The position numbers were made by a program, and so were the translations under genes. The notes below the pieces were generated by a model, which was not told the DNA's origin, ran no database searches, and saw nothing but the letters and a program-made list of their open reading frames with translations. DNA of 64,000 nucleotides from Haliotis cracherodii (lineage: Eukaryota): the NCBI RefSeq assembly GCF_022045235.1, contig NW_027266286.1:42160001-42224000 (forward strand). Reading direction: 5' to 3'. Every line of letters begins with the position of its first letter. The stretch's first letter is position 1. Positions 9,368 through 63,394 of this stretch are shown one piece after another.

Positions 9368-12300
9368 TTATCCTTCTGATGCATTATCAGATGACACAAG
9401 CTTGGCTGTGACAAGCGCAACTGAAGAAACATACCCCACTGTCATGCTGTCAGAGAAGTGGAACTGTACCAGGTTAGACCCCATGACAAAGAGGGAGGTA
9501 GGGACAGCAAACTCCCAAACTTCCCAATAGGTGGTGCTGTTAAACTTGTCGGAATCATACAGCTTATAGAACGAGTCAAGGGGGTTGAGGTTAAAGGTAA
9601 CATACGATACATTGTTTGTTTCATTGATCGGCCAACTGGTTGAAACTCTTAATCTTGCACTGTGGTATTGGCCATTTGGTAGATTTATGTCAGTCAAAGC
9701 GATTTTTTCTTTGATTGGTACAAGAATATCAGTGCCGTAGTATGTAGTTTCGTTGAGAGTGACAGTAGGTAGTTGGTCTGAGGGGGTCTTGAATGTCAAG
9801 TGACATGTTGCCTCAGGGGGAAGTTCAAACATTCCTTGTGTCTTCTGAATGTTAAAGGGCTCGTTGAAGGTCATGATCGGATACCATTCGTCCTTGATGG
9901 TGATGCAAGTAGCTTCTCCCCTGGCTGGTTTCATCCATTCGTCCTTAAAGTCAAGCTTGACTGTTTGCAACTTCTGAGAATAGCTATGTAAGAGAATGAC
10001 GGTTTCGTTATGCAGGGAACTGGACATTGCTAAGGGAGACACGGTTCGTTCCTGTCCATTATATTGGCTGGTTGTTCTGATAAAAGAATAGTCGGACGAG
10101 AATTTGTACCAAAATTCAAAGACGTCGACAATGCGTGTAGCGTTTCCTTGAAGAGTGAAAAGTGACCAGTTGAGACTATCATGTCCTGGATATTTTTCAT
10201 TGTCTAACCGAAACACCACTGTTCTGTCAATGTATTCCCTTAGACTGAGTTGAGTGAATCGGTGGGCATTGCAATGGTATATTGTTGAGAAGTCTACTAT
10301 ACCTGATGGAGCAAATTTGTCAATTCCTAACACAATATCGCGGCCATATTCACTGATAACAAGGGGGATAATCTTCCCTTTCTTCTGAGAGGCATAACTT
10401 TCAACCAAGTCGACAAATGCTATAAGACGTGCTTCATTCATGCCAGTGAGATTGTGAGATTTGCCTGTCACGATGAGTGAATTGTACGAATGAAAAGAAA
10501 ATGCATCTAAATAGTCTAATGTGACGTCCATGAAATATGCCACTTGTTTCCAGTACGAAAAGTCGTTTCTATCTGCTGACCCCGTTTCGCCGTCAAGTGT
10601 AGGCCCAAACACTTTGATGTTAAATCTGGCATGGAGTTTCTCCGCAACTAATTTGTGGAAGATGGCAACAGTCGTAAAATTCCAGATGTCAAGCTTAGCA
10701 TCCGGTTCATTTATGGGCTCGAAGTAGGGTGGGATCTCTCCTTTAGTATAGTCATATACTCCTTGCATCATCAACACTATGAACTCTGCAGCAGCATCGA
10801 TGTTGTTGGGGAATTGACCTTTATGTTCGGACTGGTTTATCCAACTCGGCCAGTTATGAGCTTAAACCAATGATATGATGGAACATGAAACCAACATACA
10901 AAAGAAATTAAAAACATCTATGTGCTTTCGATAAGAATATGTTCAATTGTGTTTGATGTGTTTCCTTTTTAAGAAACATAATAATTGACCAATCTGATTA
11001 TTATGTACGGTGGAATAGATTGTGTGTGCTAAATTGCTTTTAGGCATTTGCCTCCAAATATACTTCTCCACCTTTGACAGTGGCATTTGTTTGTTTTTCA
11101 TGATATGCAAAACTGTTTCTCATAATGTGTCAAGGATATTTTAAAAAAAAATGACATATCTGATCAAAAGTTGAATAATATACATTAAATGCCTCTGCAA
11201 ATCTCCCATAATTATTTTTTTACAAACAAATGCATCAATGATTATGGAGTGTTGGTCTTTCAATTTACTCGAGTTGTATGATGTGGTAGGACGCGCTCAC
11301 CTGCCCAGTGAATGAGTAGCCTATATTTTGTTCAAACTGTTCTTGTGGTAAAATGTTTGCGACAGAAATACAAATCTGAATACACATAAGATCTTCCGTT
11401 TTAAATATACTTATTAAGCTATTAAATTGTCTTACCTCTCGCCATCAAGATCATTTCATTCTTATAACCACTATTAATGTTAGCAAGGTAGTTTAAGAAG
11501 AGTTCCTGCTGTTTGGTGACATTCTTCAAGTAGTTGGGTGCAGGGTAGCCACTACGGTTTGTGTCCTCTGGCCACTGTATAATTGATAAATGAAAATAAC
11601 GGTTTGTTATGATCTATATATGTCAACGCAAAGACTTGAAACGTTATGGATAACAACTTCTTAATTGTTTGTAACAACGCGCCAGGGTTACGTCTTGTCC
11701 CTTAATCATCAAAGACATGAAGAAACGTTATGGATATTAACAACTTCGGTATTTTTTTCTCCAAACAATATTTTAGAGGTTATAGTTGTTCAACTCAGCA
11801 CTCAGGAGTACTTCAGCTATATATGGCGCCAGCATGTGAATGATCGAGTCTAGACCAGACAATGTAGTTATTAATACTATGAGCAACGATCCACGCCAGA
11901 GGCGTACATTGACACGCCATCCACCAAGACAGCGAGCCTGATCAACCGATCCATTAAGTCGCCTCTAAGCTTACGAACCCCTTAGGTTGTTACGGACTAA
12001 TGCTGACCCAGAATCCACACGTATAGGCTCTTCAAGTAATAATTGTTAATCCTAATACAAAAAGGCATAAACCACTGCCATATGTATTAAGTACAAGGAC
12101 AAAACAAAGAATCGCATTAGAAAGAAAATCTCACATCTTGGAAGAGACGATCACTATCATCTGGGTGTATCCAGCGCCCACTGTCAGTCCGAATGCTCCG
12201 ACAGTTTGCGATAAGGGACTCCTTTTCCAGGCCGTTATGCTTGTTCCACCTGTCACTCTCATAGCGAACTCTACCTCCCTGTGCCAGCCACTGAGGGTAG

Positions 12301-12374
12301 ATCGTCACCGTCGTGTCACTGTTCACACCGCCTATTATCAGGCTCAAAGTGAAATAGACATGTCTCCATGTCAT
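9368..12374 (-). CDS. secreted GH86-like beta-porphyranase/beta-agarase, copy B (623 aa); exons 12374-12135, 11574-11436, 10860-9368
   Basis: Signal peptide MTWRHVYFTLSLIIGGVNS. GT-AG junctions at phase 0 and phase 1 give one open frame of 1872 nt. Clan GH-A motifs YFEPINEP, DAFSFHSY, PLVISEYG; C-terminal beta domain ARLRVS...GSNLVQFHFSD...GYVSSVALV. In-frame upstream ATGs (e.g. 12407) are possible starts. Confidence 0.85.
11800..12022 (-). mobile_element. family 1 short retroelement, diverged, in intron 1 of copy B
   Basis: ctcagcactc..cagctatatggcg..cgagtctagaccagacaat..gcgagcctgatcaaccgatcc..agtcgcctct is the reverse complement of the 7968-8232 family. Confidence 0.7.
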
Positions 12375-12439
12375 TGTTACTGGAATGTAATGTATCATTG
12401 TCTTCATGTAGAATTGAAATGATGTACTGGTGAGCGAGA

Positions 12440-12550
12440 CCTTTTATAGTTAGAATGCATGGAAACTACCTTTGGCCGTGACACTGCAATTCTATAAATG
12501 TGTATACATGATAAGGAATGGCGCTGTCATGTAGGTGTGGTGATAGGGTA
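12440..12550 (-). promoter_or_regulatory. putative core promoter of copy B: TATAAAA (12448-12442) with a GATA site (tgataag 12509-12515)
   Basis: The same block with similar spacing recurs at about 19698-19810, 39463-39570 and 60108-60200, each upstream of a family member. Confidence 0.6.
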
Positions 12551-12727
12551 GCCAAGATTTGTCCCTCTACAACGTCTGTCGTACGAGGAGTTGTATGTAC
12601 GTTCCCAGTTTCACTGAAATGCCAATTCCTAAGAAGAGGATACTTATTTTTGTCTGCCAAGTCCAACTTTTATTTGAAAATACCAACGATGACGATTTTG
12701 AAACTTTAATGTGTTTCTGAGATGTGT

Positions 12728-13115
12728 TGTGTCCGTCACAGATAAGATTTTCTCTTTGTTAGACTGTTTTGGTCCCTTACTCTTGCCTCGACGGCCGAAG
12801 ACGTGCATAGTTAGGCCCTAAACAAGGGGTATGTGAACATGGGGAAAATGGGTAAATAGGCTGGTCGCCGTGCATGGACTGTTTTGGCCAGCTTCGCGCG
12901 GCTTTTCTATTTTCTATTTTCTATTTTTCTACATAATACTATGGTGAACGTGTGATGGAATATTTACCCGGAAATTGTTATTGATGATGCACAAACCATT
13001 TCTCTTTGAAGTTTTGTTTCCATTGCAACGTAATGCAAAAGTTCCTCGTTGCTATTGTTCCCAAGTGTATGCTGAAAATATGGTGAAAAATGCCTAGTGT
13101 GTGATAGGACAAGCT
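12728..13115. repeat. interspersed repeat (possibly a non-autonomous DNA transposon) upstream of copy B
   Basis: Homologous to 40357-41505 (with an internal insertion) and 61011-61361. Starts with (ta)gtccgtcacag. Confidence 0.55.
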
Positions 13116-17334: not shown

Positions 17335-17495
17335 CAGACAGTCAAGTGATTGGCATCATGAGCATCGATCTATGTAACTGGGATACAATGACATGCATCA
17401 ACCAAGTCAGCGAACCTGACCACCCGATCCTGTTACTTTCCTCTTCTGACAGCTGGGTTGCTGAAGATCATATTTAACAAGGATCTTCACGGGTC
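17335..17495 (-). mobile_element. family 1 short retroelement, 5' part
   Basis: Reverse complement begins gacccgtgaagatcc..tgatcttcagcaaccc..ggatcgggtggtcaggttcgctgacttggttg. Confidence 0.75.
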
Positions 17496-23981: not shown

Positions 23982-23986
23982 GTGTT

Positions 23987-26280: not shown

Positions 26281-26449
26281 TGAATTAAGCGAATTTCAAT
26301 ACTTGTTGGTGACAAAGCCTCGCAGTCGCAGACACAACGATTGAGATCAATAACATCTATAAACAACAAATGTGTACATTTCCAGTAATAAGTTTTTATT
26401 ATAATGGTTTTAAGTCTTAAAGAGTTAGAGACCATCTAAGTAATCTTGT

Positions 26450-27022: not shown

Positions 27023-30000
27023 TTATGACTTCAAATCAGAAGGGACCAGCTTGGCTGTGACAAGAGCAACTGAAGAAACATGTCCCGCTGTCATGTTGTT
27101 AGAAAAGTGAATCTGTACTTGGTTGGCCCCAGTGACAAACAGGGAGGTTGGGACAGCAAACTCCCAAACCTCCCAAAAGGTGGTACTCTCAATCATGTTG
27201 GCATCATACAGCTTATAGAACGATTCAAGGGGGTGGAGGTTGAAAGTTAGATATGATACACTATTTGTTTCATTGATTGGCCAACTGGCAGAAACTCTCA
27301 ATCTGGCACTGTGATATTGACCAGTTGGTAGAGATATTACTGTTAAGGCGACATTTCCCTTGATTGGTATAAGTGTATCAGCTCCGTAGTATGTGGTTTC
27401 GTTGAGAGTGACTGAAGGCAGTTGGTGTGAAGGTGTTTTAAATGTAAAGTGGCATGTTGCTTCAGGCGGAAGTTCGACCATTCCTTGGCTCTTCTGGATG
27501 TCGAAGGGTTCATTAAAGGTAATGACTGGGTACCATTCGTCCTTGATGGTGATACAAGTAGCTTCTCCAGTGGTTGGCTTGATCCAGTCGTCCACAAAGT
27601 CTAGCTTGACGGATTTTGACTTCGGAGAATAGCTATGCAAGAGAACAACCGTTTCATTATTCGATGGGCTGGACATTGCTAACGGCGATACAGTTCTTTC
27701 GAGTTCATCATATTGGCTGGTAGTTCTGATAAAGTAGTATCCTGATGCGAATTTGTACCAAAATTTGAAGACGTCGACCATACGTGTGGCGTTTCCTTGG
27801 CGAGTGAAAAGTGACCAGTTGAGACTATCATGTCCCGGATATTTTTCATTGGCTAAAAGAAACACCACTGTTCTGTCAATGTATTCCCTGAGACCTAGTT
27901 GGGTAAATCTGTGGGCATTGGCTTGGTATATTGTTGAGAAGTCGACTATACCTGATGGAGCAAATTTGTCAATTCCTAGCACAATATCGCGACCATATTC
28001 ACTGATAACAAGAGGGATAATTTTTCCGGTCTTCTGTGAGGCATAGCTTTCAACCAGGTCAACAAATGCTACCAGACGTGCTTCATTCATACCAGTAAAC
28101 TTGTGAGATTTCCCCGAAACAGTTAGTGAGTTGTACGAATGAAAGGAAAACACGTCTAAAAAGTCCATAGTGATGTCCATGAACTTGGCCACTTTTTTCC
28201 AGTCGGTAAAGTTGTTTCTATCCGAATTTCTGGCAAAACCGTCAAGTGTAGGACCAGCAACTTTGACGTTAAACTTTGTATGGAGTTTCTCCGCGACTGA
28301 TTTGTGGAACATGGCGGCAGTCGTGAGGTTCAAAATGTTGAATTTTGGGTCCGGTTCATTAATGGGTTCAATGTAGGCTGGCATCTGTCCTTCGGTGAAG
28401 TCGTTAACGCCTTGCACCATCAACATCACCAACTCTGCAGCAGCATCGACGTTGTTGGGGAACTGACCTTCATGTTCAGACTGGTTCATCCAGTTCGGCC
28501 AGTTTAGAGCTAAAATTAATAATACAACGGAACAGGACACTAATTGATGAATGAAATATCTCAGTTTCTTCTTCTGAATCACGTCTGTCAGTTTTATGAT
28601 GCTTATTTCTCCTTAAAAAAAAAAATTCCTCCACGAATCATTATCAAGAAAAAATAAATGAGTCCCCTATGCTTTTCGACCGTCTTGTCTCTTATTGTCT
28701 CTAGTTTTGCGAAGCACCTAATTTTGGCAATAAATGGTTTAAATCATTGGAGAGTATTGTGTAAGTTAACTTCATTAAACAGTTCCTTTTTACACCTAAC
28801 GGTGTTACTATTGCATGTTTTAATTCGACATTTTATGTAATGTCCTTTCTCAACAACATTTACTACAAATATATCATATCTCGCCCGGACAATAAGTGCA
28901 ATATTCACTGGATGTTCTGAAACAAATATCAATGAAACAGTTATGTGCAACGTTGTATCCTGGTATAATTTGATAACTAAAAATACATGTAGCATTGTAA
29001 GTTTAATGCATTTGGGTTAGAGTAAAATTTAACTATACGTTTATTCGTTTCCAAAGTTGAAGTGCTTCACAATTCCCCAACAATGATGCACAATTCGTTC
29101 TCAACAAGGCTAAAGAATTCCTTACAATACTCTGCGTATTGGACTGTTTTAATCATTGTATTTTTCTATCTTTGGCTCAGTGCATAAATACTGTCTTACC
29201 TCTCGACATCATGATCACGTCGTTCTCGTAACCACTGTTTATGTTAGCAAGGTACAAGGAAAACAGTTCCTTCTGCTTGGTGGCATTCTTCAAGTAGTTG
29301 GGATCTGGATAGCCACTTCTGTTGGGGTCCTCTGGCCACTGAATGTAATATTCCATCAAGCAAACAGTTAGGAGAGAAACATAATGTTTCTTCCAATTTG
29401 AAGCTGTTATTGAATATTTACACCTGCAAATAACATTTATCATAATTCTCGAGCATCGTGTACACATTACCATCCGCACATCTTTAAAACATGAAATCAA
29501 CAACATTAAAAATACAACAGCAGTCTATTTCTAAGTATATGCAATGTGCGAATGGTATGGTGTCATATGCTTCCACGACGAATTTTCCCTTCTTGAAAGG
29601 AGAAGGGAACAAATAATGAATGCGGTATTGTAAGTCGGATGCTCAGTGCCACATTTTCCAAAATCGGATTATGATACCTATCAAGTATCCATACACTGTG
29701 TGAAAAGTTCCGAAGTTCGGGGTTTAAATCCCATTTAACGATGTTTTTCAACCAATTAGATTGAAGCACATGCTCCCATGCTTGTTTTACAATGTATAAA
29801 TTAATTTCAGCAAAATAGTTGAAATCATGAGATGCAGAACTCCTTACTATGTTTAGTGGTTGTGAAGAGACTGCAGTTGTTTAAGAAGTTAAAAGCTTAA
29901 GGCTTCGTGGATAGACATTAACTGTTTAAATTACTAAGACGACCGAAAACAATTAAAGTTTACTCTGTATTCTCATTTCAAACTATTGTGTCATTAACCT

Positions 30001-32167
30001 TTTGTTTGATATTACTCTTAAAAAAGAAACGCAAGACGGATATTTTTTGCCATAAAAGCAAAATAAGCGGACCAATAAGTGCAACATGACGAGGTTTAAT
30101 GTGTTATTGTGTCAGTAACAAATTTCGCGGATCAAAATGATCACATCAAGGACATGCAAACCATTAGTTTCGACGCGTCATATTGAGTCGACAACACCCA
30201 ACAACGACTGCATTGATTTCTCCTCCGTCGAGGGGATGGAATAGCACGAATCTTCAGACGTCGGGGAGAACGTTACGCCGGAAACTGCGTACAGGAAGTG
30301 GACAGGTTTGGTGGGGGTAACGTCATGATATGGGCGACTATCTCTCATCATGGCAGGACAGGTTTGGTCCATATCCAGGGCAATGATACATCAACGAAAT
30401 CTCCTACCACACGTCTTCCCAATTGCAGTCAACGGCAACGGTATATGCCAGCAGGACAACACTCGACCGCATACATCACGTATCACAAGAGACTGTCTAC
30501 ACAACAACAAAGTTAATGTTCTCCCCTGGCCCTCAAGATCCCCGGATTTCAACCCGATAGAGCACCTGTGGGATGAATTTGATAGAAGGCTACACCGACG
30601 TCAACCACAACCCCAGGCGTTGCAGCAGTTGGATTTTGCGTTGCCGGCCGAGTGTGCTACCATTCCCCGGTATATTATTCGCATACTCGTATCTTCCATA
30701 GATGTCAGGCCGCTTTCGATTCCAACGGGGGACAAACGCGTTATGATGATAGCTGACCTTCACCTTTGACTTTTCCTATGTACCGATAACTGAGATGACT
30801 ACAATCACGAAGTGTTCTCCCCACAACATTTTGGCTCAATACCTTGTACGGCTCCTCGTATAAATGTATTTTTCCTTCCTCACACAAATCTGGCTTTGCG
30901 TTTCGTTTTTTGAAGGGTATATATTTCACTTGATGCTTCTTTGGCAAAGTAGATAAGGTGGTAATTAAGGCAACATATGCCTGAACTGTCAACATATTGT
31001 GAGAAGAGATAACCATGTGAAATTAATAGATTCCATAACTGTATAATCCTCACTGAATTATCAACATGTTAATGTTCAACAGGTAAGTAAGTGGTATCTG
31101 GTATTAAGAATAAAATAATAACACATCTTGGAGTGAGTGAGTGAGTGAGTTGGGTTTAAAGCCGCTTTTAACATTATTCCAGTCATATCGCGGCTTGTCA
31201 GCTTAATTTGAGAGGAAAACCCGAAGTGATGCAGGTTTTAGACGTTTACCACTTCTGTGAAACCCACGAGCACGGGTATGGTGCTGACAAACCTAGAAAC
31301 ATAATTGGGGCGAACAGGGATTCGAACCCACAATCATAGGTTTCTGGCGTGCCCAAGGGACGCAACTCTGCACAGCGAATCGCGGCGCCTTAGACTACTG
31401 GGCCACCCGTCCCCCCAACACATCTTGGAAAAGATTGTAATATAGCGCATTGTTATTTCAGCGCCCGCTGTCAGTTCGAATGCTCCCACATTTGGGAATA
31501 GTATATTCGCTTTCATTATCACTGCCAAGATCTCAATATACTGAAAGGTTGAACATGTAATTTATTTTAATATTAACCGTTTGTTTTGGTTCCTGTTGTA
31601 ACATGTTGGGTAGTGTTTGACCTGTTATTGGCTAGAACACCATTAGTGTCTGTTCAGTAGACAGATATAGCAACACGTGCCTGCTGCAATCAAAATATAT
31701 TTCTCGTAACAGGATTTCTCGTTGCCGTAATGAATATAGCAACTCATTATCACCATAATTTGCTTTCTCGCAACAGGATTTCTCGTTGTTGAAAATTAAT
31801 TTATGCCAATACATTGTCACCATAATTTGCTTTCAACTTTACGGTGCCAAATATATCTTTGAACAATACTAGTGACAACTTTCAATATCAAGTAATATAT
31901 TCAGTATTATTCAAAGGTTGATCTTACGTCTTGGAAAAGGCGATCATTATAATCTCTGTTATTCCAGCGTCCACTATCAGTCCGAATGCTCCGGCAGTTT
32001 GGAATGAGGGATGTGCTATCCAGACCATTGTGCTTGTTCCACCTGTTACTGTCATAGCGAGCACTACCTCCCTGTGCCAACCATTGAGGGTGGATCGTTA
32101 CCGTCGCCTCACTGTATAGACCATCTATTGACAAGCTCAAAGTGAAACAGACCAGTGTCCATTTCAT
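27023..32167 (-). CDS. secreted GH86-like beta-porphyranase/beta-agarase, copy C (621 aa); exons 32167-31928, 29338-29200, 28509-27023
   Basis: Signal peptide, canonical splice sites, open 1866-nt frame; YIEPINEP, DVFSFHSY, PLVISEYG. Confidence 0.87.
30013..30921 (+). mobile_element. internally deleted Tc1/mariner element in intron 1 of copy C
   Basis: TIRs tactcttaaaaaagaaacgcaa / ttgcgtttcgttttttgaagggta; transposase motifs GGGNVMIW, QQDNTRPH, WPSRSPDFNPIEHLW. Confidence 0.85.
31131..31415 (-). mobile_element. tRNA-derived SINE (family 2) in intron 1 of copy C
   Basis: Flanked by the TSD aacacatcttgg(a). Absent at the orthologous site of copy A (about 2479-2491). Confidence 0.85.
31420..31503 (-). 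pseudogene. dead 3' half of an exon 1 inside intron 1 of copy C
   Basis: Homologous to 2483-2565 and to the end of copy E exon 1. Confidence 0.75.
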
Positions 32168-34419: not shown

Positions 34420-36929
34420 TTACTTCAAATCAGAAGGGACCAGCTTGGCTGTGACAAGAGCAACTGAAGAAACATATCCTGATGTCATGTCGTTAGAGAA
34501 GTGAACCTGCACCAGGTTAGGCCCCGTGACAAAGATGGGGGTTGGAACAGCAAACTCCCAAACCTCCCAGTAGGTGGTGCTGTTAAACTTGTCGGAATCA
34601 TACAGCTTATAGAAAGAGTCAAGGGGGTGGAGGTTAAAGGTAAGATAGGATACATTGTTTGTTTCATTGATCGGCCAACTGGTTGAAACTCTCAGTCTTG
34701 CACTGTGATATTGGCCATTTGGTAGAGATATTACTGTCAATACCGTATTTCCCTTGATTGGTATAAGTGTATCAGCTCCGTAGTATGTAGTTTCGTTGAG
34801 TGTGACTGAAGGCAGTGTGTTTGAAGGGGTCTTGAATGTGAAATGACATGTTGCTTCAGGGGGAAGTTCAACCATTCCTTGTGTCTTATGGATGTCGAAG
34901 GGTTCGTTGAAGGTAATGACTGGGTACCATTCGTCCTTGATGGTGACGCAAGTAGCTTCTCCAGTGGTTGGCTTGATCCAGTCGTCTTCAAAGTCTAGCT
35001 TGACCGCCTGTGACTTCTGAGAATAGCTATGCAGAAGAATGACAGTTTCGTTATTCAGTGGACTTGACATTGCTAACGGCGACACCGTTCGTTCCTCTCC
35101 ATCATACTGACTGGTAGTTCTGATAAAGGAGTAGCCTGACGTGAATTTGTACCAAAACTTGAAGACGTCAACCATACGCGTGGCGTTTCCTTGAAGAGTG
35201 AAAAGTGACCAGTTGAGACTATCATGTCCTGGATATTTTTCATTGGCTATAAGAAACACCACTGCTCTGTCAATGTATTCTCTGAGACCTAGTTGGGTAA
35301 ATCGGTGGGCATTTGAGTGGTATATTGTTGAAAAGTCTACAATACCCGATGGAGCAAATTTGTCAATTCCTATCACGATGTCACGTCCATATTCACTGAT
35401 AACAAGGGGGATAATCTTTCCAGTCTTCTGGGAGACATAGCTCTCAACCAGGTCGACAAATGCTACCAGACGTGCTTCATTCATGCCAGTAAGATTGTGT
35501 GATTTCCCCGAAACAATGAGTGAGTTGTACGAATGAAACGAAAATACATCTATATAGCCTAAAGTTACGTCAAGGAAATTGGCCACTTTTTGCCAATACA
35601 AAAAGTTGTTTACATCCGCCGCCCCAGTTTCTCCGTCAAGTGTAGGACCGGACACTTTGATGTTAAATCTCGCATGGAGCTTCTCAGCAACTAATTTGTG
35701 AAATTTGGCAACAGTCGTGAAATTTAATATACGCCATTTACCATCCGGTTCATTGATGGACTCAAAGTAGTGTGGTATCTGTCCTTTTGTGAAATCATAA
35801 ACTCCTTGCACCATCAACATCATGAACTCTGCAGCAGCATCGACATTGTTTGGGAATTGACCTTCATGTTCAGATTTGTTTATCCAACTCGGGTAGTAAA
35901 TACCTGTAAATAGCAAAAGAGTAAAATAATGTTGATGGTAAAATGATTGGAAAGGAACATGTGAGAAAACATCTGAAATATACAAATGAAGAATAAATGA
36001 TGCATGAAGGAAAAATAATTGAAGTGGATTTGTTGTGCGACATGCTAGCGAGATGATATATTGCAAGGATCTAAGGACACATGTGTTTTTGAAGTACTTC
36101 GAGAAAAAAATGCTTTGGAGAGAAACATTTTGTCAGTGATACGAAAATGGCTTCGACATAGAAGGATATATTGACTTATGTTATACCTAAACAAAAAGTT
36201 TTAATTTCGTTATATATGAATACCTTTATTGGTCGTTTTAATGCAAATTATCAGAGTTTATTGTTGTGAAATCATGTTATAATATTTATTGTATATGTGT
36301 CTTTAACTATTACACAGCCAAATGTTTTATGATCAAGGAATCACATTTCAACCTAAACATTTATGAATCATACTTCTACATACACATGTTACTATATTGC
36401 AGTAGGGTTGATTTTAGAATCAACCAAGAGTCAGATGTTCGAATGCCTTTGGCGAAGAACACTAACTAGATAGGGTGACTCAAGAAATCTGCTGAAGAAT
36501 GTTGGATTTTTTATATGATGGATAATGTGATAAACCAAACCGATTTACTTGGTACATGCAACAAGAACCCTTCGTCAGAATTACTTTTGATGAGCTCATA
36601 CATCATATCAATTCCTCGATTAACTATTGGCCAAAATTCCCCAAACATGTAGGTAAGGGTAAGGGACATTTTTTTACCCGTATTCCTATCTGATTATTTT
36701 ATGAATGAAGTGATAAAAAGAGATAATTATGCTTGCATGTTCCCGTTAACATATCATATAAGGAGTAGACGTATACGTTTGCTGTTTAACACAGCACTCA
36801 GCAATTCCCAGATATACGACGGCGGCATTTAATAAAATCGAGTTTTGACCAGACAAACCACTGGTTGATATTATGAGTAACGATCCACGCCGTTGCGGTA
36901 CGGTGATACCGACTTTGCAACCCGATCCG

Positions 36930-36981
<52 letters not shown>

Positions 36982-42257: not shown

Positions 42258-45200
42258 TCATGACTTTAAATCAGTTTGGACAAACTTGGCTGTAACAAGA
42301 GCAACTGAAGAAACATGTCCCGCTGTCATGTTGTTAGAGAAGTGAATCTGTACTTGGTTAGGCCCGGTGGCAAACAGGGAGGTTGGGACAGCAAACTCCC
42401 AGACCTCCCAAAAGGTGGTACTTCCAATCATGTTGGCGTCATACAGCTTATAGAAAGATTCAAGGAGGTGGAGGTTGAAGGTAAGATATGATACACTGTT
42501 TGTTTCATTAATCGGCCAACTGGCAGAAACTCTCAGTCTGGCACTGTGATATTGACCATTTGGTAGAGCTATTACTGTTAAGGCGATATTGCCCTTGATT
42601 GATATAAGTGTATCAGCTCCGTAGTATGTGGTTTCATTGAGTGTGACATTAGGTAGTTGGTCTGAGGGGGTCTTGAATGTGAAGTGACATGTTGCTTCAG
42701 GAGAAAGTTCAACAATTCCCTGGGTTTTCTGGATATCGAAGGTTACATTGAATGTGATGACCGGGTACCATTCGTCCTTGATGGTGACGCAAGTAGCTTC
42801 TCCAATGGTTGGTTTGATCCAGTCGTCTTCAAAGTCTAGCTTGACCACCTGTGACTTCTGAGAATAGCTATGCAAGAGAATGACGGTTTCATTATGTAGG
42901 GAACTAGACATTGCTAACGGCGACACCATTCGTTCCTCTCCATCATACTGGCTGGTAGTTCTGATAAAGGAGTAGTCTGGCGTGAATTTGTACCAGAACT
43001 TGAAGACGTCGATGACACGTTTAGGTCGTCCTTGGTTAGTGAAAAGTTGCGAGTTGGGAAAAGGATATTCATTATTGGCTAAAAGAAACACCACTGTTCT
43101 GTCAATGTATTCCCTAAGACCTAGTTGGGTAAATCGGTGGGCATTTGAGTGGTATATTGTTGCAAAATCTACTATTGCTGATGGAGCAGTTGGGCTTATT
43201 CCTTTCACGATGTCGCGACCATACTCACTGATAACAATGGGGACAATCTTCCCTGTCTTCAGAGAGGCATAATTTTCAACCAGGTCGACAAATGCTACTA
43301 ACCTTGCTTCATTCATCCCAGTGAAATTGTGAGATTTTCCCGAAACTATAAGTGAGTTGTACGAATGAAAGGAAAACAAATCTAAATAGTCTAAAGTGAG
43401 GTCCATGAAATTTGCCACTGTTTTCCAGTCGGTAAAGTTGTTTCTGTCCGAATTTCTGGCGAAACCATCAAGTGTGGGACCAGTAACTTTTATGTTAAAT
43501 CTTGCATGGAGTTTTTCCGCAACTGATTTGTGGAACGTGGCAACTGTTGTGAAATTCAAGATGTTAAATTTGGTGTCCGGTTCATTCATGGGTTCAATGT
43601 AGGGTGGGATCTGTCCTTTGGTGAAATCATAAACTCCTTGCACCATCAACATCATGAACTCTGCAGCAGCATCGACGTTGTTGGGGAATTGACCTGCATG
43701 TTCGGACTGGTTCATCCAACTCGGGAAAAACAAACCTGTAAATAGCATGAGAAAAAACACGTTCGTAAATGAACACAAAAGAAACGGTTTTCAATACTTG
43801 AAGCCTCAAATGTATGGCCTAATTAAGAATGATATATCATTGCCAAAGTCATCATCGCGTCTTGATTTGTTCTTCTGATTTATGTGTTTCAGTTTTATTA
43901 TACTTAGTACTCTCCAAAAGAAATAGATTGTTCTCTTCAGAATTTTTATTATCAAGAAGCATAACATACCACATGCCTCTCGACCTTCTTGATCATAGTG
44001 TCTCCTGTTTTGTAAAGCACTTCATTTAGGCCAAAAATGGTATAAATCATTGGAGCGTGTTTTGTATTTTGAAAGTTCGCATCATCAGATAATTCCTTTC
44101 TACAAGTCACTATGTTACTATTGTATGTTATAATACGACCTTTTCTGCAATATCCTTACTTAAGAAAATCAAAAATAAGAGTTTGAGTTACAGTATTTCA
44201 GCCATATAGCGATTATCGGTGAGTGAGTGGTTTTACGCCGCTTTTGGCAATGTTCAAGGAAAATCACGGCGGAGAACACCAGAAATGGGCTTCACACATT
44301 GTACCCACGTGGGGAATCGAACCCGGCTCTTCGGCGTGACGAGCGAACGCTTCAACCACTGGGCTACCCCACCGCCCCTCGTGACTATCAAATGGTATGC
44401 ATAATATATACATTTAAACAATAAAAGCCTCTCAACAAAGGACAGTAAAATAACTAGAACTTCACAGATTTAAGTTTTAAACTAGCATACAACCATGAAA
44501 AGATAAAACTATATATAACAATATAATATAAAAACGGCCCATAGATCGCCAGCAACGAAAGGTATTTCACCATAATAGGGACAATGGGGACTTACAGTAC
44601 CTTTGATGCCTGTATGGACCCCAGCAGGATTTACATCATCCCTGTTGTCGATTATTGATCAATTTAGCCAAACATTAGGACAACACATGTGACAAAAATA
44701 AAACTACTTTTATAGGGGTGGTCTTACATACCCTCGCAGGGGGACAATACGTTTACACTACTTCAACCTCCTTCGAGGACACAGCCTCTAAGAATCTCAG
44801 TTATCAAATTATAAAAAAATAGTCCTTGATTATATCCAAAACATGTCAATCAAAATGTCTTGACCAATTCTATTTCTTTAAAAAAAACCACCAAGAATTA
44901 AATGAGAACTGATATAATTGTTAAAAATATCATTTAGGGATGAAACTTTTAGTTGTCCCTTGTGATGGAAAATAAACATAAATAAACAATATATTGCCCG
45001 CTCATAAAGGAAGATATTCATTTGATGTTGTGAAACAAATATCAAATGAAACCGTTATGTACAACATTGTATCCTGGTATATTTGATAACACTTGTTTGT
45101 GTATTGGACTATTTCGATATATTTTGGTATTTTTTCCCTTTTTGGCTTTGTGCATTGATACTGTCTTACCTCTCGACATCATGATCATGTCGTTCTCATA

Positions 45201-46615
45201 ACCACTGTTAATGTTAGCAAGGTACAAGGAAAACAGTTCCTTCTGCTTGGTGGCATTCTTCAAGTAGCTGGGATCTGGGTAGCCGCTACGGTTCGGGTCC
45301 TCTGGCCACTGAATTGAATATTTATTTTATCAAGTAAACATCCAGTTAGGAGAAGAACATGATGTGTCTTAAGGAGTTATTAAATATTCACACCAAGAAA
45401 ATACAACCGCAGCCTATTTCTAAGTATGTTCAAACTGCTGTGAGGCTTTGGTGACGTCTCTGCGGAATGGTATGGCGTCATACGCTTCCATGACGACTTT
45501 CACCCAGCTAAATCTGAAAAGCAGTTTTTTCTGACAAGTATTAGTCACGCCCATTAAATAACGAATTCTAGTTCCCATGTCCAATGTCATGTTTCCAAAT
45601 TTGGATATGATACCTATGAACTGAAGTAACCATACGCAATGAAAAGTTCCTTACTACATGTAGTTCAAATCACATTTAACAGCGTGTTGCAACCAATCAT
45701 AACGCGGCACATGCCCCCATTTGTTTTGCAATGTATGTTAGCATAAATATCATGTCGGCAGAATAACTAAAATCACACGATGTCACACTTCTTCTTATGT
45801 TCAGTGGTTGTGAAGAGACTGAAGGTTTTTTTACATGCAATAACGTCCCGTGGATAAACAATTACTGATTACATTACTGACAGGTCTTTAACAATTGCCA
45901 TTTACACTGTATTCTGATTTGTTTGGCTGTATAAAGTTATAAAAAATATTCCACTTAGTGACATTTTGTAAACATTTGTCAGTGCATATTAACAAAAACA
46001 TTTATGTCAACCTGAACAGCAGCGAAACTATGGCATCAAGATTTATTTGGTCATTCTTATTTACAGTTGTATTGACATTATATTTTCATTTCTGCTGTTG
46101 CATGTGGGCTATTGTTTGAAAGTAATTGTCTGTCAGTTCAGTAGCTAGGTTTAGTAACACGTGCCTGCACAGCAGAAAAATATTTTTGCAACACGATATT
46201 TTAAGAAATATTGAAGTTCTTCCTGTTGTTTAGATCTCATTTGAAATGAAAAGATTATAAATAATAAAGTATAATCGTCACTGAACTTTCAATATTAAGG
46301 TCCAATATCTCTATAAACAAATTGAATGTATTATCAAGTAAGTAGTATCTGGTATTATGTATGCGGTGATCTTACATCTTCGAAGAGACGATAACTAAAG
46401 CCATTGTTATTCCAGCGCCCAGCGTCAGTCCGAAGGTTCCGACATTCGGGAATAAGGGACTCCTGATCAAGGCTATTGTGCTTGTTCCACCTGTTACTGT
46501 CATAGCGAGCACTGCCTCCCTGTGCCAACCATTGAGAATGGATCGTCACTGTCGTGTCGCTGCACACACCGCCTATTGACAGGCTCAAAGTGAAATAGGC
46601 CAGCATCCATTTCAT
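42258..46615 (-). CDS. secreted GH86-like beta-porphyranase/beta-agarase, copy E (618 aa); exons 46615-46376, 45308-45170, 43735-42258
   Basis: Signal peptide MKWMLAYFTLSLSIGGVCS; canonical splice sites; open 1857-nt frame; YIEPMNEP, DLFSFHSY, PIVISEYG. Confidence 0.87.
44178..44975 (-). mobile_element. 3' end fragment of an I-group LINE in intron 2 of copy E, with a nested family 3 SINE (44219-44378)
   Basis: Matches 21151-21800 (ggggacttacagtacctttg, aggatttacatcatc, aattctatttctt). Confidence 0.75.
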
Positions 46616-46678
46616 TTTCTGTGAATTGTAAAGTTCACTGGATTGTGACCTTGGCGTAGTGTCGAAGACTATATATCG

Positions 46679-54330: not shown

Positions 54331-57300
54331 TCATTTAATGTCAGATGGGACAAGCTTGGCTGTGACAAGGGCTACCGCAGTCACATATCCTTCCGAATCT
54401 TTGTTGGAAAAGTTAACTTGGACCGTGATTGAAGTGGTGTTCAACAAGGTGAAAGGGACGACAAACTCCCAAACATCCATGTAGTTGAAGATTTTACTGT
54501 TCTGTTTGTCTGAGTCGTACAGCTTGTAACAGGGGTAAAGAGGTTGGTGGTTAAAGGTAACAGATGACAGACTGTTTGTTTCATTGATGGGAAGACTCGC
54601 AGAAACTCGCAGTCTCGCGCTGTCGAATTCATCTTTTGGAAGAGCTATGCTTGTCACAGCGATGCTGTCCTTGATGGGTATAATCATATCAGCTCCGTAG
54701 TATGTTGTTTCATTGAAAGTGTCTCTTGGCAACTGGTTTGAGGGAATTCTGAATGTATAGCGACATGTTGCTTCAGGTGGAAGGTCAACCATTCCTCCAG
54801 TATTACCGATGTCAAAGGGTTCGTTGAAGGTGATAATTGGATACCAGTTGTCCTTGATGGTGATACAAGTAGCTTCTCCTGTGATTGGTGTTATCCAGTC
54901 GTCTTGAAAAATTAACTTGACCATCTGTGATTGTTGAGAATAGCTGTGTAAGAGAATGACCGTTTCATTACGTACAGAACTTGACATTGATAGCGGCGAT
55001 ACCGTTCGTTCCTGACCATCACATTTGCTGGCAGTTCTGATGAAGGAGTACTCTGACGTGAAATTGGACCAAAATTTGAATACATCTGCATTCCTTGAGG
55101 CGTTTCCTTGGCGGGTGAAAAGTGACCAGTTGGAACCATTATTTCCAGGATCTTGTTCACTGCTTAAAAGAAACACCACCGATCTGTCAATGTATTCTCT
55201 GAGACCAAGATGGGTGAACCTATGGGCATTAGACTGGTATATTGTTGAAAAGTCAACTATCCCAGATAGAGCAGTTTTACTAATTCCTATCACTCCATCG
55301 CGACCATATTCACTGATAATGAGTGGGATTTTTTCCCCCTTCTTTTGATGAACATAGCTTTCAATCAGGTCAACAAATGCTACCAGGCGTGCTTCATTTA
55401 TACCAGTAAATCGGTGAGATTTCCCTGAAACAATAAGTGCGTTGTACGAATGAAAGGAAAACACGTCTAAATAGTCTAAAGTGATGTCCATGAACTCTAC
55501 CAGTTTTGTCCAGAACGAAAAGTCGTTCCTGTCTACCACTGTGTTATATCCCGTCATTGTCGGGCCAACCACTTTGATGTTAAACCTGGAATGGAGTTTC
55601 TTGGCAACTGTTTTGTGGAAAATGGCGACAGTGGTGGTGAAATTCATTATATCCCCTTTAACATCTGGTTCGTTGACGACCTCGAAGTATGGCGGAATCC
55701 GACCTTGAGTGTAGTCAAAGACTCCTTGCACCAGCAACAATATAAACTCTGCAGCAGCATCGATGTTGTTGGGGAATTGACCCTTATGATCGGACGTATT
55801 CATCCAGTTTGGCCAGTGAAGACCTAAAATCAATAATACAACATAAAACTGATTGATAAATACATATGCCTTTTCTATAAGAGCTTACGCATATATTTCC
55901 GTTTTAAAGACAAACTTCATCACTGTTTCCTTGACGCGATACAGGACGTCAAGCTGGCGATAATATACGGCTATTAAGTAATTGCTGTGCTGTGTAATTG
56001 CTGCGTACTTGCTGTGCAATCAACCAAATAAGACAAAGGCCGCCTGCTCTTGTATTTCCTTAATACAATCAATGAAGGACTATCTTTATAGTGAATTTCA
56101 CAGAAAGTATTTGAGACAAGTTGATTAATATTATGTTGAATCTTATTTCATTTTCAACTCTGTACACCACTATCCACCACTGACAGACTGAAGGTAAAAC
56201 TCATTCCTTGATCCATGGGACTTTTTTTAATAACGTGGTGACCATAGATATAGTCACATGTCTATTTTAAGAGGTTCAGGTCAATTTGTCAAAAATGAAA
56301 GCAAATGAAATCTGAAGTTTACTGCAAAAATATTATCTGAAATGCTGGACATCTTTATTGATAATATTTATTTAACATTTTGGGAAAAAACATTCAGGCA
56401 AGAAGTAGGCATCACCATAGTCACCGATTCCGCTCCCCTCCTTGCTGATCTGTTTCTTTATTCATATGAATCAAAATTTCTGCTCGGACTGGCAAAGTCA
56501 ATCCAAGTTAATTTGGCCAGGAACTTTAACATAAACTTCAGGTATATAGAAGATCTGATATCGTTCAATAACAGTCAAATTGCCAATTCCCTTACACCTA
56601 TACTAGAAATGTAGGCGACCAGTGAGACCGCCTCATCTGTTTCATATTTGGATCAACACAAAAAGATTCTGAGTGAAAAAAACACTTTCAACAAGACTGT
56701 ATGACAAGAGGTATGACTTCACCTTTTCAAAAGTCAACATATCCTTTATTTCAAAATTTTTGAGGTGCAATCTAGCATACTCTTTCTAGCAAGATTTCAA
56801 AGAGCTATACAACTCTTGCCCACAGGTTGTTTGATCAAGGTTACAACATTCAAGGCCTCTGTAAAACTTTTAGAGGGTTTTATGGAAGGCAGACATGTGG
56901 AGGACATTTCAAAATTTGACAAAAATAAGTGATAACAATTATGTCTGATGCAATGCTCTATTTTGATTTCTACCCTATGTTCACGTTGTTTTTTTCAAAT
57001 GAACAATAGACTTGCCTTTGCATGCGTTTGTGACGGATGCCACCGGTGGCGCAGAATATGTTAACCTCTTCGCAAACACCTTGTATTATCACTATTTGAT
57101 ACTGATTCATAAACACATGGTCATGATATACCAGTAGTCGGAAACGTACAATCGAATATTAGCAGATATTGCTTATGAATATGGAGAGGGTTTTGTCACG
57201 TTAAATTTATAAGTAGATTAATCTTACACCTATCATTTGTAACTACACGTAAAGTACGTCCAGGCGATTTTGGGTTATTTTCTACCATCTGCACATCATT

Positions 57301-60065
57301 TGCTTCTCTCCTTCACAGAGGTCATAACATAAGAAGGCAATCTAATATGTGATCTTGACGTCCATGCATGATGTGTGATAGAGCAACTGCCATATATAGG
57401 TGCAATATCTATCGAACGCCTGACTTCGTTATTGCAGTGATTCGTGAGTGCATCTAATCTTCGAATTTGTCTTTTACTATTGTGACGGGAAAGAAATATG
57501 AATCTCTCTACGTCCGTTTTAATAATATTACCAATCAAATAACAGCATTTGTTTCTGAATATTCTTACCTTTCATCATCATGATCATTTCATTCTTATAA
57601 CCACTGTCAATGTTAGCAAGGTAATCGGAGAACCATTCCTGTTGCATGCTGACGTTCTTTAGGTAGTTGGGGTCGGGGTAGCCACTTCGGTGTGCGTCTT
57701 CTGGCCACTACAATCAATATGCTTATTAGGCAAGGAGAATGTTATTCCAAACAGTGCTACTTTGTGAATATTCGTCAATGCATATTAGCTTAAACATTTA
57801 CTTTCAGTCTAAATAGGGGTCAGGGTACCCTCTTGCCATTGTATAATTAATATATGAAAATTTGGGTTTAGTATAATTAATCGCATATCAATGACAATTC
57901 ACTGTTGTGCAATGTTTCCCAGTAATATCTTGTATCATGCATAAAAGGAAAAGGTTAATTCAATAATTGTCCAGTCATTTGTTACCTGTTCACTGGCAAG
58001 TGTACAAGTCCATATTAGTCTTAAGTAATTACTTCATTTGTATGAGTGGATACGACCATGGGGCATCGAGCAATAATTGTCTATCCCAATTAAAGAAAGA
58101 CAATGACTCTAAAACATAGTGTTTATTTCTTAGCAGGAGAATTGGCCTCAAAACATTCATCCCACCACATTCATGCATTTATCGTATGCAACATCACTGC
58201 AGCTCTATAAATGTTAATTAATGTCTGTTTGCAATATTCATGACATTACTGTCAAAACGAACCCTCGAAGCCATACATTACAGGATGAGCAAATGAAAGA
58301 CACAGAAATGCTTCATGTTTTCTGTCTCAACTGCCGGGCAGAAGACCCTTATCCCCTTGCACCGCAGCTCCATAAAAAGAAACAAAAACAGGTGAAGGTT
58401 ATTTTAATGAAAGGAATCATTTTTAATGTCTGTACATAATGCAATTCTATATCGATAGTGCACTTGCCAAAAGTCCGAGCGAAAGAGACACGGGGTCAAA
58501 ATGAAAAAAATACGTAAAGACGAGTCCACTTAAAAGGTGCTCATAAAGTCAAATCATGTGACAAGACATGTCCCTAGTAGCGTGTGTGACCACCCCCTGC
58601 ATCAATGCGCGCCAAAATAGTCTCCTCATGGATGCCGTTGGTCGCCGGATGACTTCATTAGGAATTCTGCGCTACTCATCCAATAAAACCTGTTCAAGCT
58701 GCTGTCTGTTTGCTGGGGGAGATACGCGTTGTCTCATCTGTCGATCACGATGATCCCAGAGATCCTCTATGGGATCCATGTCTGGAGAACATGCTGGCCA
58801 AGGAAATACGTTGACGTTAACGTTGTGCAGATATTGCTGAACACGTCTGGCGTGCATTGTCCTGCTGCAAAAGGGTACCCCTTGCCCGTCCACGTAAGAA
58901 TGGCACTAGAGGAGATCGAACACCTCATCTCTGTATCTTTGGCCAGTCAGATTCCCACGGATAATGACAAGCCTTGTTGTCCTCTGACCGCAAATACTGC
59001 CCGATACCATAACGCTGCCTCCTCCATACGGCTGCTCATCTTGGATGCAGTGAGGTGCCAGTCGCTCGCCCCTACGTCGATAAACACGGACTCGGCCATC
59101 ATTACAGAACAAGTTAAAGCGACTTTCATCTGGGAACAGCACCCTTTCCAAATCACGCCGCTGCCACCGACGTACAGGTTTTGCCCATTGTAATGCGTTG
59201 ACGTAGAAGATGGATCAATGCCGTTCCACGGAAGGGGCGGTAGGCTCTGATACCACCAATGCAGAGTCATCGTACGGGTGTTCATCTGCTGATGTGGTGT
59301 CCCATTGCCGTCGCTGCCGTTGACGTCGCCGTCACGTATCGGATGTAGCGGTCTTCAACTGGTGTTGTGACTCTTTGTGTCTGGTCTATTTGCTGATACA
59401 GGCTCAACTAGTTGCTCATACTGGTTTGACTGCAGTTAAAGGTTCTTGCAATCTGCCGTTGAGAGGCCCCAATATCGGCTATACCAACAGCTCTATCATG
59501 TTCCTCTTGTGCTAGTATCGGCATTTCTCTGCTGTTCTTTTTGATGCTGCATCCTTCCTCTACCCCACACCGGTATTTATGCAACAATTATGCACGAACA
59601 CTTTTCACAGTTCCCCCAAATCCTGTTTTTCCAATTTATCATGACCGCACTTCACTCACTAAAACGTGACTTTCATTGTGCACATGGTGTGTGTTGGTGA
59701 ATGTTTTCTGATAACATTCTAACTTATCGCTCTTATCGCCTTTTATTCAGTGATACGTTTCTTTTGCCCGGCATTTTACAATGTGACTTATTACGATAAT
59801 ATAAAGGATCGAATTAGAAAGAAAATCTCACCACTCGGAAGAGAGTAAAATCTTCGTGTATCCAGCGCCCGCTGTCAGTCCGAAGGCGGCGACAGTTTGC
59901 AATACGGGACTCCTTTTCCAGGCCATTGTGCTTGTTCCATCTGTCACTCTCATAGCGCACACTACCCCCCTGTGCCAGCAACTGAGGATAGACCGTCACA
60001 GTCGTGTCACTATATACACCACCTATTACCAGGCTCAGGGTGAGAATGACCAGTGTCAATTTCAT
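54331..60065 (-). CDS. secreted GH86-like beta-porphyranase/beta-agarase, copy F (621 aa, most divergent); exons 60065-59832, 57707-57569, 55823-54331
   Basis: Signal peptide MKLTLVILTLSLVIGGVYS; splice sites gtgaga/tag and gtaaga/tag; open 1866-nt frame; YFEVVNEP, DVFSFHSY, PLIISEYG. Confidence 0.85.
56130..57090 (+). mobile_element. decayed Penelope-like retroelement RT fragment in intron 2 of copy F
   Basis: FIDNIYLTF..FRQEVGI....SAPLLADLFLYSYE..FRYIEDL, SVSYLD, LYDKR.DF.F motifs. Confidence 0.7.
58328..59775 (-). mobile_element. decayed Tc1/mariner transposon in intron 1 of copy F
   Basis: TIR-like tgccgggca(g/a)aaga at both ends; VLFPDESRFNL, YGGGSVMV, WPACSPDMDPIEDLW. Confidence 0.85.
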
Positions 60066-61377: not shown

Positions 61378-61540
61378 GGTGCGGTCGGGTAGCATAGTGG
61401 TTAGAGCGTTCGTCATGCCTATAACCTGGGTTCGATTCCCGACAAGGGTACACTGTGTGAAGCCCATTTATGGTGTCCCAAGCCGGGATATTGCTTGAAT
61501 ATTACTAAAAGCGGCGTAAAACCAAACTCCCTCACTCACC
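61378..61540 (+). mobile_element. tRNA-derived SINE (family 3)
   Basis: A-box tagcatagtggttagagcg, B-box ggttcgattccc, ctcactcac tail. Confidence 0.8.
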
Positions 61541-61916
61541 ATTTTCGGGGTCAATTATCAGCTTCACGTATCCTTCAAAGTAGCGACATTGTTTCTTTTA
61601 TTGATTTTTGTTGCCTACATGCACGTCGAACTGATCAACAGTCCTTCTATAGGATGGCAGCCTGTAAATAACCATGTCATACTCAAACAGGTAAGACTAA
61701 CAGTTCTTTGGTGTATGTGTGTACATTATATGTACATTGTAGACAGTTACACAAACATAATTACAACCGACATAGTATTCAAGCTAAGTACAACACCAGC
61801 TGTTCTTAAAAATAAATATGCGACCTGGGAATATAACAACAATGACACTTTGATGTAATTTGTTTAATACTGTCAAATTTGAGGAATTTGTCAGAAATAG
61901 TATTATTTTCATGATT

Positions 61917-63394
61917 TCAAATCGGTTGGGTAAGCTTGGCTGTGACAAGAGCAACTGAAGAAACATATCCTGCTGTCATGTTGTTGGAGAAGTAGACCTG
62001 TACCAGATTAGCCCCCGTTACAAATAGGGAGGTAGGGACAGCAAACTCCCAAACTTCCCAATAGGTGATGCTTTTAAATTTGTCAGAATCATACAGCTTA
62101 TAGAAACAGTCAAGGCGGTGGAGGTTAAAGGTTATATATGATACATTGTTTGTTTCATTGATCGGCCAACTGGTTGAAACTCTCAGTCTTGCACTGTGAT
62201 ATTGGCCATCTGGTAGAGATATGACTGTCAAGACGATATTGCCCTTGATTGGTATCAGTGTATCAGCTCCGTAGTATGTGGTTTCGTTGAGAGTGACTGA
62301 AGGCAGTTTATTTGAAGGGGTCTTGAATGTAAGGTGGCATGTTGCTTCAGGTGGAATTGTCACCATTCCATGGGTCTTCTGGATGTCGAAGGGTTCATTG
62401 AAAGTGATGACTGGGTGCCAGTCGTCCTTGATGGTGATACAAGTAGCTTCTCCAGTAGTTGGCTTGATCCAGCCGCCTTCAAAGTCTAACTTGACCGCCT
62501 GTGGCTTCTGAGAATAGCTATGCAAGAGAATGACAGTTTCGTTATTCAGTGGACTTGACATTGCTAACGGCGACACTGTTCGTTCCTCTCCATCATACTG
62601 GCTGGTAGTTCTGATAAAGGAGTAGCCTGACGTGAATTTGTACCAAAACTTGAAGACGTCGACAATACGCGTGGCGTTTCCTTGAAGAGTGAAAAGTGAC
62701 CAGTTGAGACTATCATGGCCTGGATATTTTTCATTGGCTAAAAGAAACACCACTGCTCTGTCAATGTATTCCCTGAGACCTAGTTGGGTGAATCTGTGGC
62801 CATTGGCTTGGTATATTGTTGAAAAGTCCACTATACCTGATGGAGCATATTTGTCAATTCCTTCCACGGGACCGCGACCATATTCACTGATAACAAGGGG
62901 AATAATCTTTCCAGTCTTCTGGGAGACATAGTTTTCAACCAGGTCGACAAATGCTACCAGACGTGCTGCATTCATACCAGTGAAATTGTGAGATTTTCCC
63001 GAAACAGTCAGCGAGTTGTACGAATGAAAAGAAAATACATCGATATAGCCTAAGGTGACGTCCAGGAAATTGGCCACTCTTCGCCAATACGAAAAGTCTT
63101 TTCTATCCGCCAGCCCAGTTTCTCCATCAAGTGTAGGACCAGAAACTTTGATGTTAAATCTCGCATGGAGTTTCTCAGCAACTAATTTGTGAAATTTGGC
63201 AACAGTCGTGAAATTCAGTATACGCCCTTTACCATCCGGCTCGTTGATGGGCTCAAAGTAGTGTGGCATTTGTCCTTTTGTGTAGTCATAAACTCCTTGC
63301 AGCATCAACATCATGAACTCTGCTGCAGCATCGACATTGTTTGGGAATTGACCTTTGTGTTCAGACGTGTTTATCCAACTCGGGTAATAGAGAC
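61917..63394 (-). CDS. GH86-like beta-porphyranase/beta-agarase copy G, exon 3 only (exons 1-2 lie beyond the right edge)
   Basis: Acceptor tttttcag|gtctctattac (G-LYYPSW); YFEPINEP, DVFSFHSY, PLVISEYG; open to the stop at 61917. Confidence 0.85.

Follow-up and report, generated by a model that had tools for sequence, protein, structure and literature searches.

Copy-specific cleft loops in tandemly duplicated GH86-like genes of Haliotis cracherodii

The window analysed here, a stretch of 64,000 nucleotides (nt) from the abalone Haliotis cracherodii (RefSeq assembly GCF_022045235.1, contig NW_027266286.1, positions 42,160,001 to 42,224,000 of the forward strand), carries duplicated genes that resemble glycoside hydrolase family 86 (GH86). 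It contains five complete minus-strand genes (B to F), exon 3 of a further gene (G) and a broken copy (A). We consider it fairly probable that these genes encode enzymes, likely secreted, that would act on agar-type galactans, that selection keeps cleft loops particular to each copy, and that the copies would differ in binding or products. The evidence that bears most directly on this is an excess of differences in the cleft loops between paralogues, with none between orthologues of two Haliotis species. An earlier sequence-only reading of the window had proposed that divergence is concentrated in substrate-binding loops around invariant catalytic glutamates, and that the genes form a panel of enzymes tuned to differently sulfated or methylated galactans.

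GH86-like fold and cleft loops

A predicted structure and profile comparison support the window genes as GH86-like barrel enzymes. The AlphaFold model of B (mean predicted local distance difference test score, pLDDT, 89.6) has the (beta/alpha)8 barrel and two beta-sandwich domains of GH86. Its seven best Foldseek matches are GH86 structures (5TA0/1/5, 8H97 and 4AW7; template modelling (TM) score 0.71-0.78, E<=1.5e-34), and the next family follows at E 1.7e-21 and TM 0.43. A profile of 65 mollusc proteins matches four PDB sequences only, all of them GH86 (5TA1, 8H97, 5TA0 and 4AW7; E 2e-38 to 4e-27). The cut-off of the Pfam families BPA_C and Porphyrn_cat_1 is reached by three of four more distant mollusc relatives (P0050, P0065 and P0079) and by none of the four window proteins scanned whole; a Pfam scan of exon 3 alone, for B and F, returned no family.

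Twenty gene models were built on the window's contig (C23), and the 17 with full frames form the gene set used throughout. Early stops excluded H231, b292 (both frameshifted) and c813, the insertion excluded A, and J249 was retained despite a start codon reading ACT instead of ATG; the defects of H231, b292, c813 and J249 represent either real loss or assembly error. The putative acid/base E178 and nucleophile E297 (B numbering), which follow strands 4 and 7, are Glu in 17/17 genes of this clade. E297 aligns with E322 of the agarase BuGH86, and the E322Q mutant structure, 5TA0, has Q there. The core residues R67, N177, H250, Y252 and F343 are invariant in the same 17 genes and near-invariant in a mixed alignment (A2).

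A cleft loop is taken here as the ten residues that follow a barrel strand; with eight strands, these loops cover 80 of 593 sites. The motifs quoted for B to G in the sequence-only reading are all present, including the 3-residue deletion of E in the late loop, and its tetrapeptides at the exon 2/3 junction are correct, their first residue being a codon split by a phase-1 intron. Its five variable segments do follow barrel strands, as the loops after strands 3, 4, 5, 7 and 8 of the AlphaFold model. It overlooked loops 1 and 2 in exon 1, and loop 2 carries a known agarase/porphyranase determinant.

Loop divergence between copies and between species

Among 23 H. rufescens proteins, 15 of the 17 genes have a reciprocal best match at more than 93% identity, and m091 and m141 have none. 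In these 15 orthologue pairs, 36 of 285 differences fall in cleft loops (12.6%, rate ratio 0.92), and the six window genes alone contribute 12 of 128. Nine close paralogue pairs give loop rate ratios of 1.9-3.5, also at equal overall identity, and the five independent pairs place 65 of 249 differences in cleft loops (Fisher p=9.4e-5 against the orthologues). The contrast persists for loop widths of 5-15 (p<=6.5e-4), and other loops show none (p=0.69). Seven deeper putative orthologue pairs, chosen from ten, have 96 of 615 differences in the loops (p=5e-4). Because the loop excess is found between paralogues and not between orthologues, plain looseness of the loops is disfavoured, and these comparisons partly support the view that the loops act like copy-specific specificity elements.

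The concentration in the loops is real and only moderate. Among genes B to G, 88 of 421 extra residue states (21%) fall in cleft loops, which make up 13.5% of sites (circular-shift p=0.007; p=0.016 against other loops). This amounts to about 1.6-2-fold, 235 of 287 variable columns lie outside the cleft loops, and loop 6 is conserved. The sequence-only reading had also named swaps of charged and aromatic residues as a feature of the loops, and their frequency shows no significant excess over other loops (p=0.10).

Codon models were fitted to the 17 genes with our own GY94 code (F3x4, kappa fixed at 2, naive empirical Bayes), on five segment trees because of recombination. In a fixed-site model, the ratio of nonsynonymous to synonymous rates (dN/dS) is 0.457 in cleft loops, against 0.254 elsewhere (p=2.4e-7) and 0.297 in other loops (p=0.002), and the nonsynonymous rate in cleft loops is raised about 2.2-fold. 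With the synonymous rate fixed, dN/dS for loops 1 to 8 is 0.38, 0.65, 1.03, 0.51, 0.75, 0.21, 0.49 and 0.57, and cleft loops account for six of the seven highest 8-codon windows. In gene B, the loops discussed here lie as follows:

12144..12173, minus strand: loop 2 (WIHPDDSDRL), exon 1; residue 69, at 12170, aligns with F77 (porphyranase) and T82 (agarase)
10838..11442, minus strand: loop 3 (ARAHNWPSWI), split by intron 2; fastest loop, dN/dS 1.03 (0.77-1.34)
10676..10705, minus strand: loop 4 (PDAKLDIWNF), after NE; dN/dS 0.51
10565..10594, minus strand: loop 5 (DGETGSADRN), after GPTL; dN/dS 0.75
10319..10348, minus strand: loop 7 (YGRDIVLGID), after the nucleophile; dN/dS 0.49
10181..10210, minus strand: loop 8 (RLDNEKYPGH); dN/dS 0.57; residue 345, at 10207, aligns with S326

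Over the whole gene, M8 fits better than M8a at p=3e-5 without double-base changes, and seven of the ten sites with an M8 posterior above 0.5 lie in cleft loops. Allowing double-base changes improves the fit by about 45 log units. The significance of M1a/M2a (p=2e-5) was rejected as support for the loops since one site, residue 108, carries the signal. This residue (near 11466, in barrel helix 2, exon 2) lies outside the cleft loops and is the fastest codon, with seven different residues in 17 genes; it is the sole site with dN/dS above 1 in every model, and it is identical in 13 of 15 orthologue pairs.

Several points weigh against copy-specific selection on the loops and against a substrate prediction from homology. 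Mean dN/dS in the cleft loops is well under 1 (p=3e-13), and the synonymous rate is also higher there, 1.23-fold (p=0.015). Within the loops, M8 exceeds M8a only weakly (p=0.03), and the difference disappears with double-base changes (p=0.17-0.38); residue 108 then carries the whole-gene signal, and excluding this residue leaves p=0.10-0.31. Codon site models with recombination control, a check that the sequence-only reading had proposed, confirm a nonsynonymous excess in the loops, but dN/dS above 1 is lost with double-base changes and is not established. On the 37 positions of that reading, the orthologue contrast reaches only p=0.057, and the orthologue counts include polymorphism, which flattens the ratio. 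The loop definition, although mechanical, was set after the alignment had been viewed, and the cleft was assigned from secondary structure and sequence alignment. Finally, identity to characterised GH86 enzymes is just 16-19%, so the transfer of a substrate from them is weak.

Gene conversion, gene models and family

Recombination among the copies, which the sequence-only reading overlooked in the form of gene conversion, is strong (pairwise homoplasy index, PHI, p=0.001), and in the approximately unbiased (AU) test each of five segments rejects the other four segment trees, bar one. The nine close pairs contain 15 clusters of differences, 10 of them centred on cleft loops against 14-22% expected. 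A scan for the longest identical runs found six significant tracts, none confined to a loop, and the longest conversion tracts (residues 518-539, 431-505 and 156-367) are not loop-specific. Two stretches of gene C are likely gene-conversion tracts, judging from their nucleotide differences:

27953..28000, minus strand: loop-7 tract; 10/48 nt differ from the near twin A, with flanks at 2/138 and 3/84
31928..31987, minus strand: loop-2 tract; equal to D over 60 nt, where C and D differ at 14% gene-wide

In loop 7, C resembles B (2/48 differ) and A resembles m074 (3/48) and G (4/48), and both the A-type and the C-type are found in H. rufescens (P0233, P0234). In loop 2, m118 and m074 differ at 1/60 nt. 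A donor check of 17 divergent clusters yielded three clear loop cases (A/C loop 7, m118 loop 2 and C/D loop 2) and suggestive ones at residues 39-53 of b302 and 70-84 of m097; for most clusters no third gene is close, and the p-values carry no correction for having 16 genes to choose from. Since most clusters lack a close donor and long tracts are also found outside the loops, the data show conversion without showing that it is directed at loops. Across distant copies, loop 2 and the end of exon 2 also tend to vary together (M69 with V124; IH[PE]D with M..AHNW), and the tree of exons 1-2 is the most unlike the others, as if these exons move as a module (m118, m107, m074, B and F).

These patterns could be read as relaxed constraint with neutral gene conversion, in which copies are kept for dose, surface loops tolerate change, and conversion homogenises the remainder of each gene, with already diverged loops resisting it. 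The low mean dN/dS of the loops and the fragility of values above 1, the raised synonymous rate, the longest conversion tracts and the many broken copies in the array would all fit. We regard it as improbable, because it would predict faster loop drift between orthologues, against the observed ratio of 0.92; moreover, other loops hold an equal share in orthologues and paralogues, and the nonsynonymous rise in the cleft loops is well above the synonymous one. Under copy-specific selection, a copy would gain new loops after duplication through a short run of substitutions or by conversion with another copy as donor; the new loop set would then be maintained by purifying selection.

Gene order and models were worked out on the minus strand of the window, with GT-AG introns throughout. 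Each gene has three exons, of 240 (F: 234), 139 and about 1490 nt, and two introns:

571..3029, minus strand: gene A, broken; exons 3029-2790, 1589-1451 and the start of exon 3
9368..12374, minus strand: gene B, intact; exons 12374-12135, 11574-11436, 10860-9368; 623 residues; contained in P0001; Glu codons at 10708 (acid/base) and 10351 (nucleophile)
27023..32167, minus strand: gene C, intact; exons 32167-31928, 29338-29200, 28509-27023; 621 residues; contained in P0008; Glu codons at 28357 and 28000
34420..38287, minus strand: gene D, intact; exons 38287-38048, 37529-37391, 35903-34420; 620 residues; contained in P0002; Glu codons at 35751 and 35394
42258..46615, minus strand: gene E, intact; exons 46615-46376, 45308-45170, 43735-42258; 618 residues; loop 8 shorter by 3 residues; Glu codons at 43583 and 43226
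54331..60065, minus strand: gene F, intact; exons 60065-59832, 57707-57569, 55823-54331; 621 residues; contained in P0034; Glu codons at 55671 and 55311
61917..63394, minus strand: exon 3 of gene G; exons 1 and 2 lie 1.5-2.3 kb past the window end; full gene intact, 618 residues

The models of B, C, D and F lie letter for letter inside the H. cracherodii RefSeq proteins listed, which carry the automatically assigned name beta-porphyranase A-like. The N-termini resemble signal peptides, as judged by eye, and the abalone genes encode 10-13 N-glycan sequons. F is the most divergent window copy, with 64-74% identity to the other 16 genes. A arose recently as a duplicate of C, from which it differs at 3% of nucleotides, and its exon 3 is broken near 571 by a long interspersed nuclear element (LINE); the remainder of that exon is found some 5.7-7.0 kb ahead of the window start. 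Splicing was assessed on contigs of runs from related organisms, guessed to be RNA and carrying no tissue information. The joint of intron 2 of B (10860/11436) is present in contigs of three of four runs (X1, X3 and X5) and absent from the large run X15, and both introns of F are spliced in one contig of one run (X9) out of four. At 11575-12134, X1 and X3 contigs read through intron 1 of a B-like gene with intron 2 spliced, and an intron-retaining form is possible.

The LINE in exon 3 of A is a non-LTR (long terminal repeat) retrotransposon of 6.2 kb, which occupies 1-575 of the window plus 5.66 kb before it and has open frames of 437 and 1215 residues, a short target-site duplication and a CTCA-repeat tail; RefSeq P0232 treats its site as if it were an intron and reads through. 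A second LINE of the same kind (21678-26295, minus strand; 76% identity to the first) comprises a gag-like frame along with endonuclease, reverse transcriptase and RNase H, and is broken in its second frame near 23990. Tc1-like transposase fragments, two of them with DDE_3 matches, lie at 30329-30769, 53166-53594 and 58675-59214, in introns of C and F and in the E-F spacer. Degenerate relics of exons 1 and 2 and short echoes of exon 1 occur between and inside genes (18889-18274, 48932-48828, 4854, 2495 and 31433).

When 169 residues of B were used to search the genome, 65 matches turned up on seven contigs. Outside the window's contig, 37 stretches contain 24 distinct full-length exon-3 frames, for a genome total of at least 41, although copies on contig C25 are possibly a second haplotype of C4. 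Copies at L050, L053 and L054 (contigs C4 and C1) have Ala in place of the nucleophile Glu, as do P0079 of H. rubra and P0080 of H. asinina; such copies are likely conserved non-catalytic glycan binders, to judge from this shared substitution. Named relatives come from four Haliotis species, Liolophura, Mytilus and Pinctada. In a FastTree tree with midpoint root and long branches, which included every second library hit, the mollusc relatives form a single clade (support 1.0), and its sister (0.95) consists of two EukProt proteins, one of them from Bolivina, and one unnamed protein. Given this sister group, a direct transfer from a bacterium to abalone is unsupported.

A bolder proposal is that a host family of at least 40 GH86 enzymes digests red-seaweed agars, that it is an old mollusc lineage with protist proteins, and no named bacterial ones, among the nearest relatives found, and that its loop cassettes are swapped by gene conversion and then fixed by selection; we hold this as a tentative idea that may well not stand in full. 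If true, the animal genome would hold a combinatorial enzyme library whose range is widened by loop swaps between tandem copies. The host-encoded expansion in molluscs is of larger interest than the loop pattern, which by itself is a familiar result of enzyme duplication. With a large, spliced host family, it becomes directly testable whether abalone themselves break down red-algal galactans, and such a family also matters for abalone feed. As natural variants that share one scaffold and differ in their loops, the copies could reveal how GH86 subsites discriminate between agar decorations, and they could be a source of enzymes for obtaining defined agar oligosaccharides.

Substrate prediction and known systems

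By homology to GH86, whose mechanism we take to be retaining, these enzymes would cleave beta-1,4 galactoside bonds in two steps, with E178 as acid/base and E297 as nucleophile. Loops 2, 3 and 8 would shape the -2 and -3 subsites and loops 4, 5 and 7 the other subsites, so that copies may differ in the polymer stretches they bind or the products they release. According to PMC5849685, the -2 subsite is set by F77 and S326 in the porphyranase and by T82 and a Met in the agarase, and the -3 subsite by H114/Q138 plus a Trp; the Met aligned with S326 is position 369 by chain count, where that paper prints M396.

The positions that match F77/T82 and H114/Q138 differ among the abalone copies. Residue 69 is I or N in the window and takes five states (I, N, M, G and S) in the 17 genes. 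The likely equivalent of H114/Q138 in loop 3 of B is residue 125 or 126, and residue 126 is R, E, K, G or S among the copies. Residue 350 (Y/D/S/N/W) aligns with a Trp common in library relatives, which may be the -3 subsite Trp. Residue 345, at the sulfate-pocket position, is L or I in all six window genes and L, I or V in 16/17; only m118, a neighbour outside the window, has Ser there, and keeps it in both species. The pocket thus looks filled, as in agarases, in all six window genes, and the T82 position holds I or N rather than Thr. Because residue 345 fills the pocket, an agarase-like -2 subsite is likelier than porphyran binding of the type seen in BpGH86A. By sequence alignment, 0/17 genes combine the F77 and S326 that make up the porphyranase -2 subsite for L-galactose-6-sulfate (L6S; PMC5849685), so the porphyranase label of RefSeq is unsupported by the known determinants.

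The proposed panel of tuned enzymes is supported in its GH86-like barrel, its cleft-face loops and the tie between divergence and paralogue identity. Neither dN/dS above 1, which does not survive double-base changes, nor tuning to sulfation or methylation is supported. Its narrow form, a panel of porphyranases whose loops read sulfate and methyl groups directly under ongoing positive selection, is unlikely. The basic and acidic swaps at residue 126, beside the -3/-2 subsites, the Ser of m118 and the M8 result without double-base changes argue for it; they are set against the aliphatic residue 345, the absence of Phe at residue 69 from every copy, charge and aromatic swaps at the level of other loops, and the instability of dN/dS above 1. 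Tuned loops could also serve non-agar substrates in some or all copies, such as carrageenan, xylan, mixed galactans, or host or microbial glycans. This would suit the low identity to characterised GH86, the Pfam result for the four window proteins, the non-aromatic residue at the Trp-aligned position 350 in F, m074, m107, I240 and J249, and the relatives in filter-feeding bivalves. Every solved full-length match is nevertheless an agar or porphyran enzyme and the five core residues are invariant, which makes such substrates quite unlikely beside agar-type galactans.

These GH86 genes are already labelled automatically in RefSeq, and we found no published account of the mollusc family: the literature searched (titles and abstract starts, with subscription journals largely missing) held no paper on animal GH86. 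Older reports on molluscan agarase activity may exist, and none was found. A paper on the abalone gut microbiota treats agar and porphyran breakdown as a gut-bacterial trait and, in the passages searched, names GH86 for Polaribacter genomes only (PMC5870069). Endogenous molluscan GH9, GH10, GH18 and GH20 have lineage expansions linked to algal feeding, according to PMC7560691; like the abalone genes these are host-encoded hydrolases, but they belong to other families. A term search of that survey's main text gave no GH86, agarase or porphyran, and its supplements could list the family.

The closest characterised systems are bacterial. The beta-agarase BuGH86 of Bacteroides uniformis NP1 (5TA0/5TA1/5TA5; PMC5849685) shares with the abalone proteins a barrel and two beta-sandwich domains (TM 0.75-0.78), both aligned Glu, and a bulky hydrophobic residue at the sulfate-pocket position, Met there and Leu/Ile in abalone. 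It differs in being a single bacterial enzyme at 16-17% identity, whereas the abalone genes have two introns and 10-13 sequons, and its Thr at the loop-2 determinant corresponds to I/N/M/G/S in abalone copies. The beta-porphyranase BpGH86A of Bacteroides plebeius (4AW7), source of the RefSeq label, has the same fold (TM 0.71) and the same NEP and SE motifs, and differs in its -2 signature. The GH86 agarase Aga86A_Wa (8H97) matches at TM 0.78 and a profile E of 4e-38, and differs in being bacterial, 742 residues long and 19% identical. Tandem enzyme arrays commonly combine a conserved catalytic core with diversified substrate loops, mosaic copies, and birth and death. No such array of animal GH86 genes was described in the literature searched; the abalone genes share the pattern.

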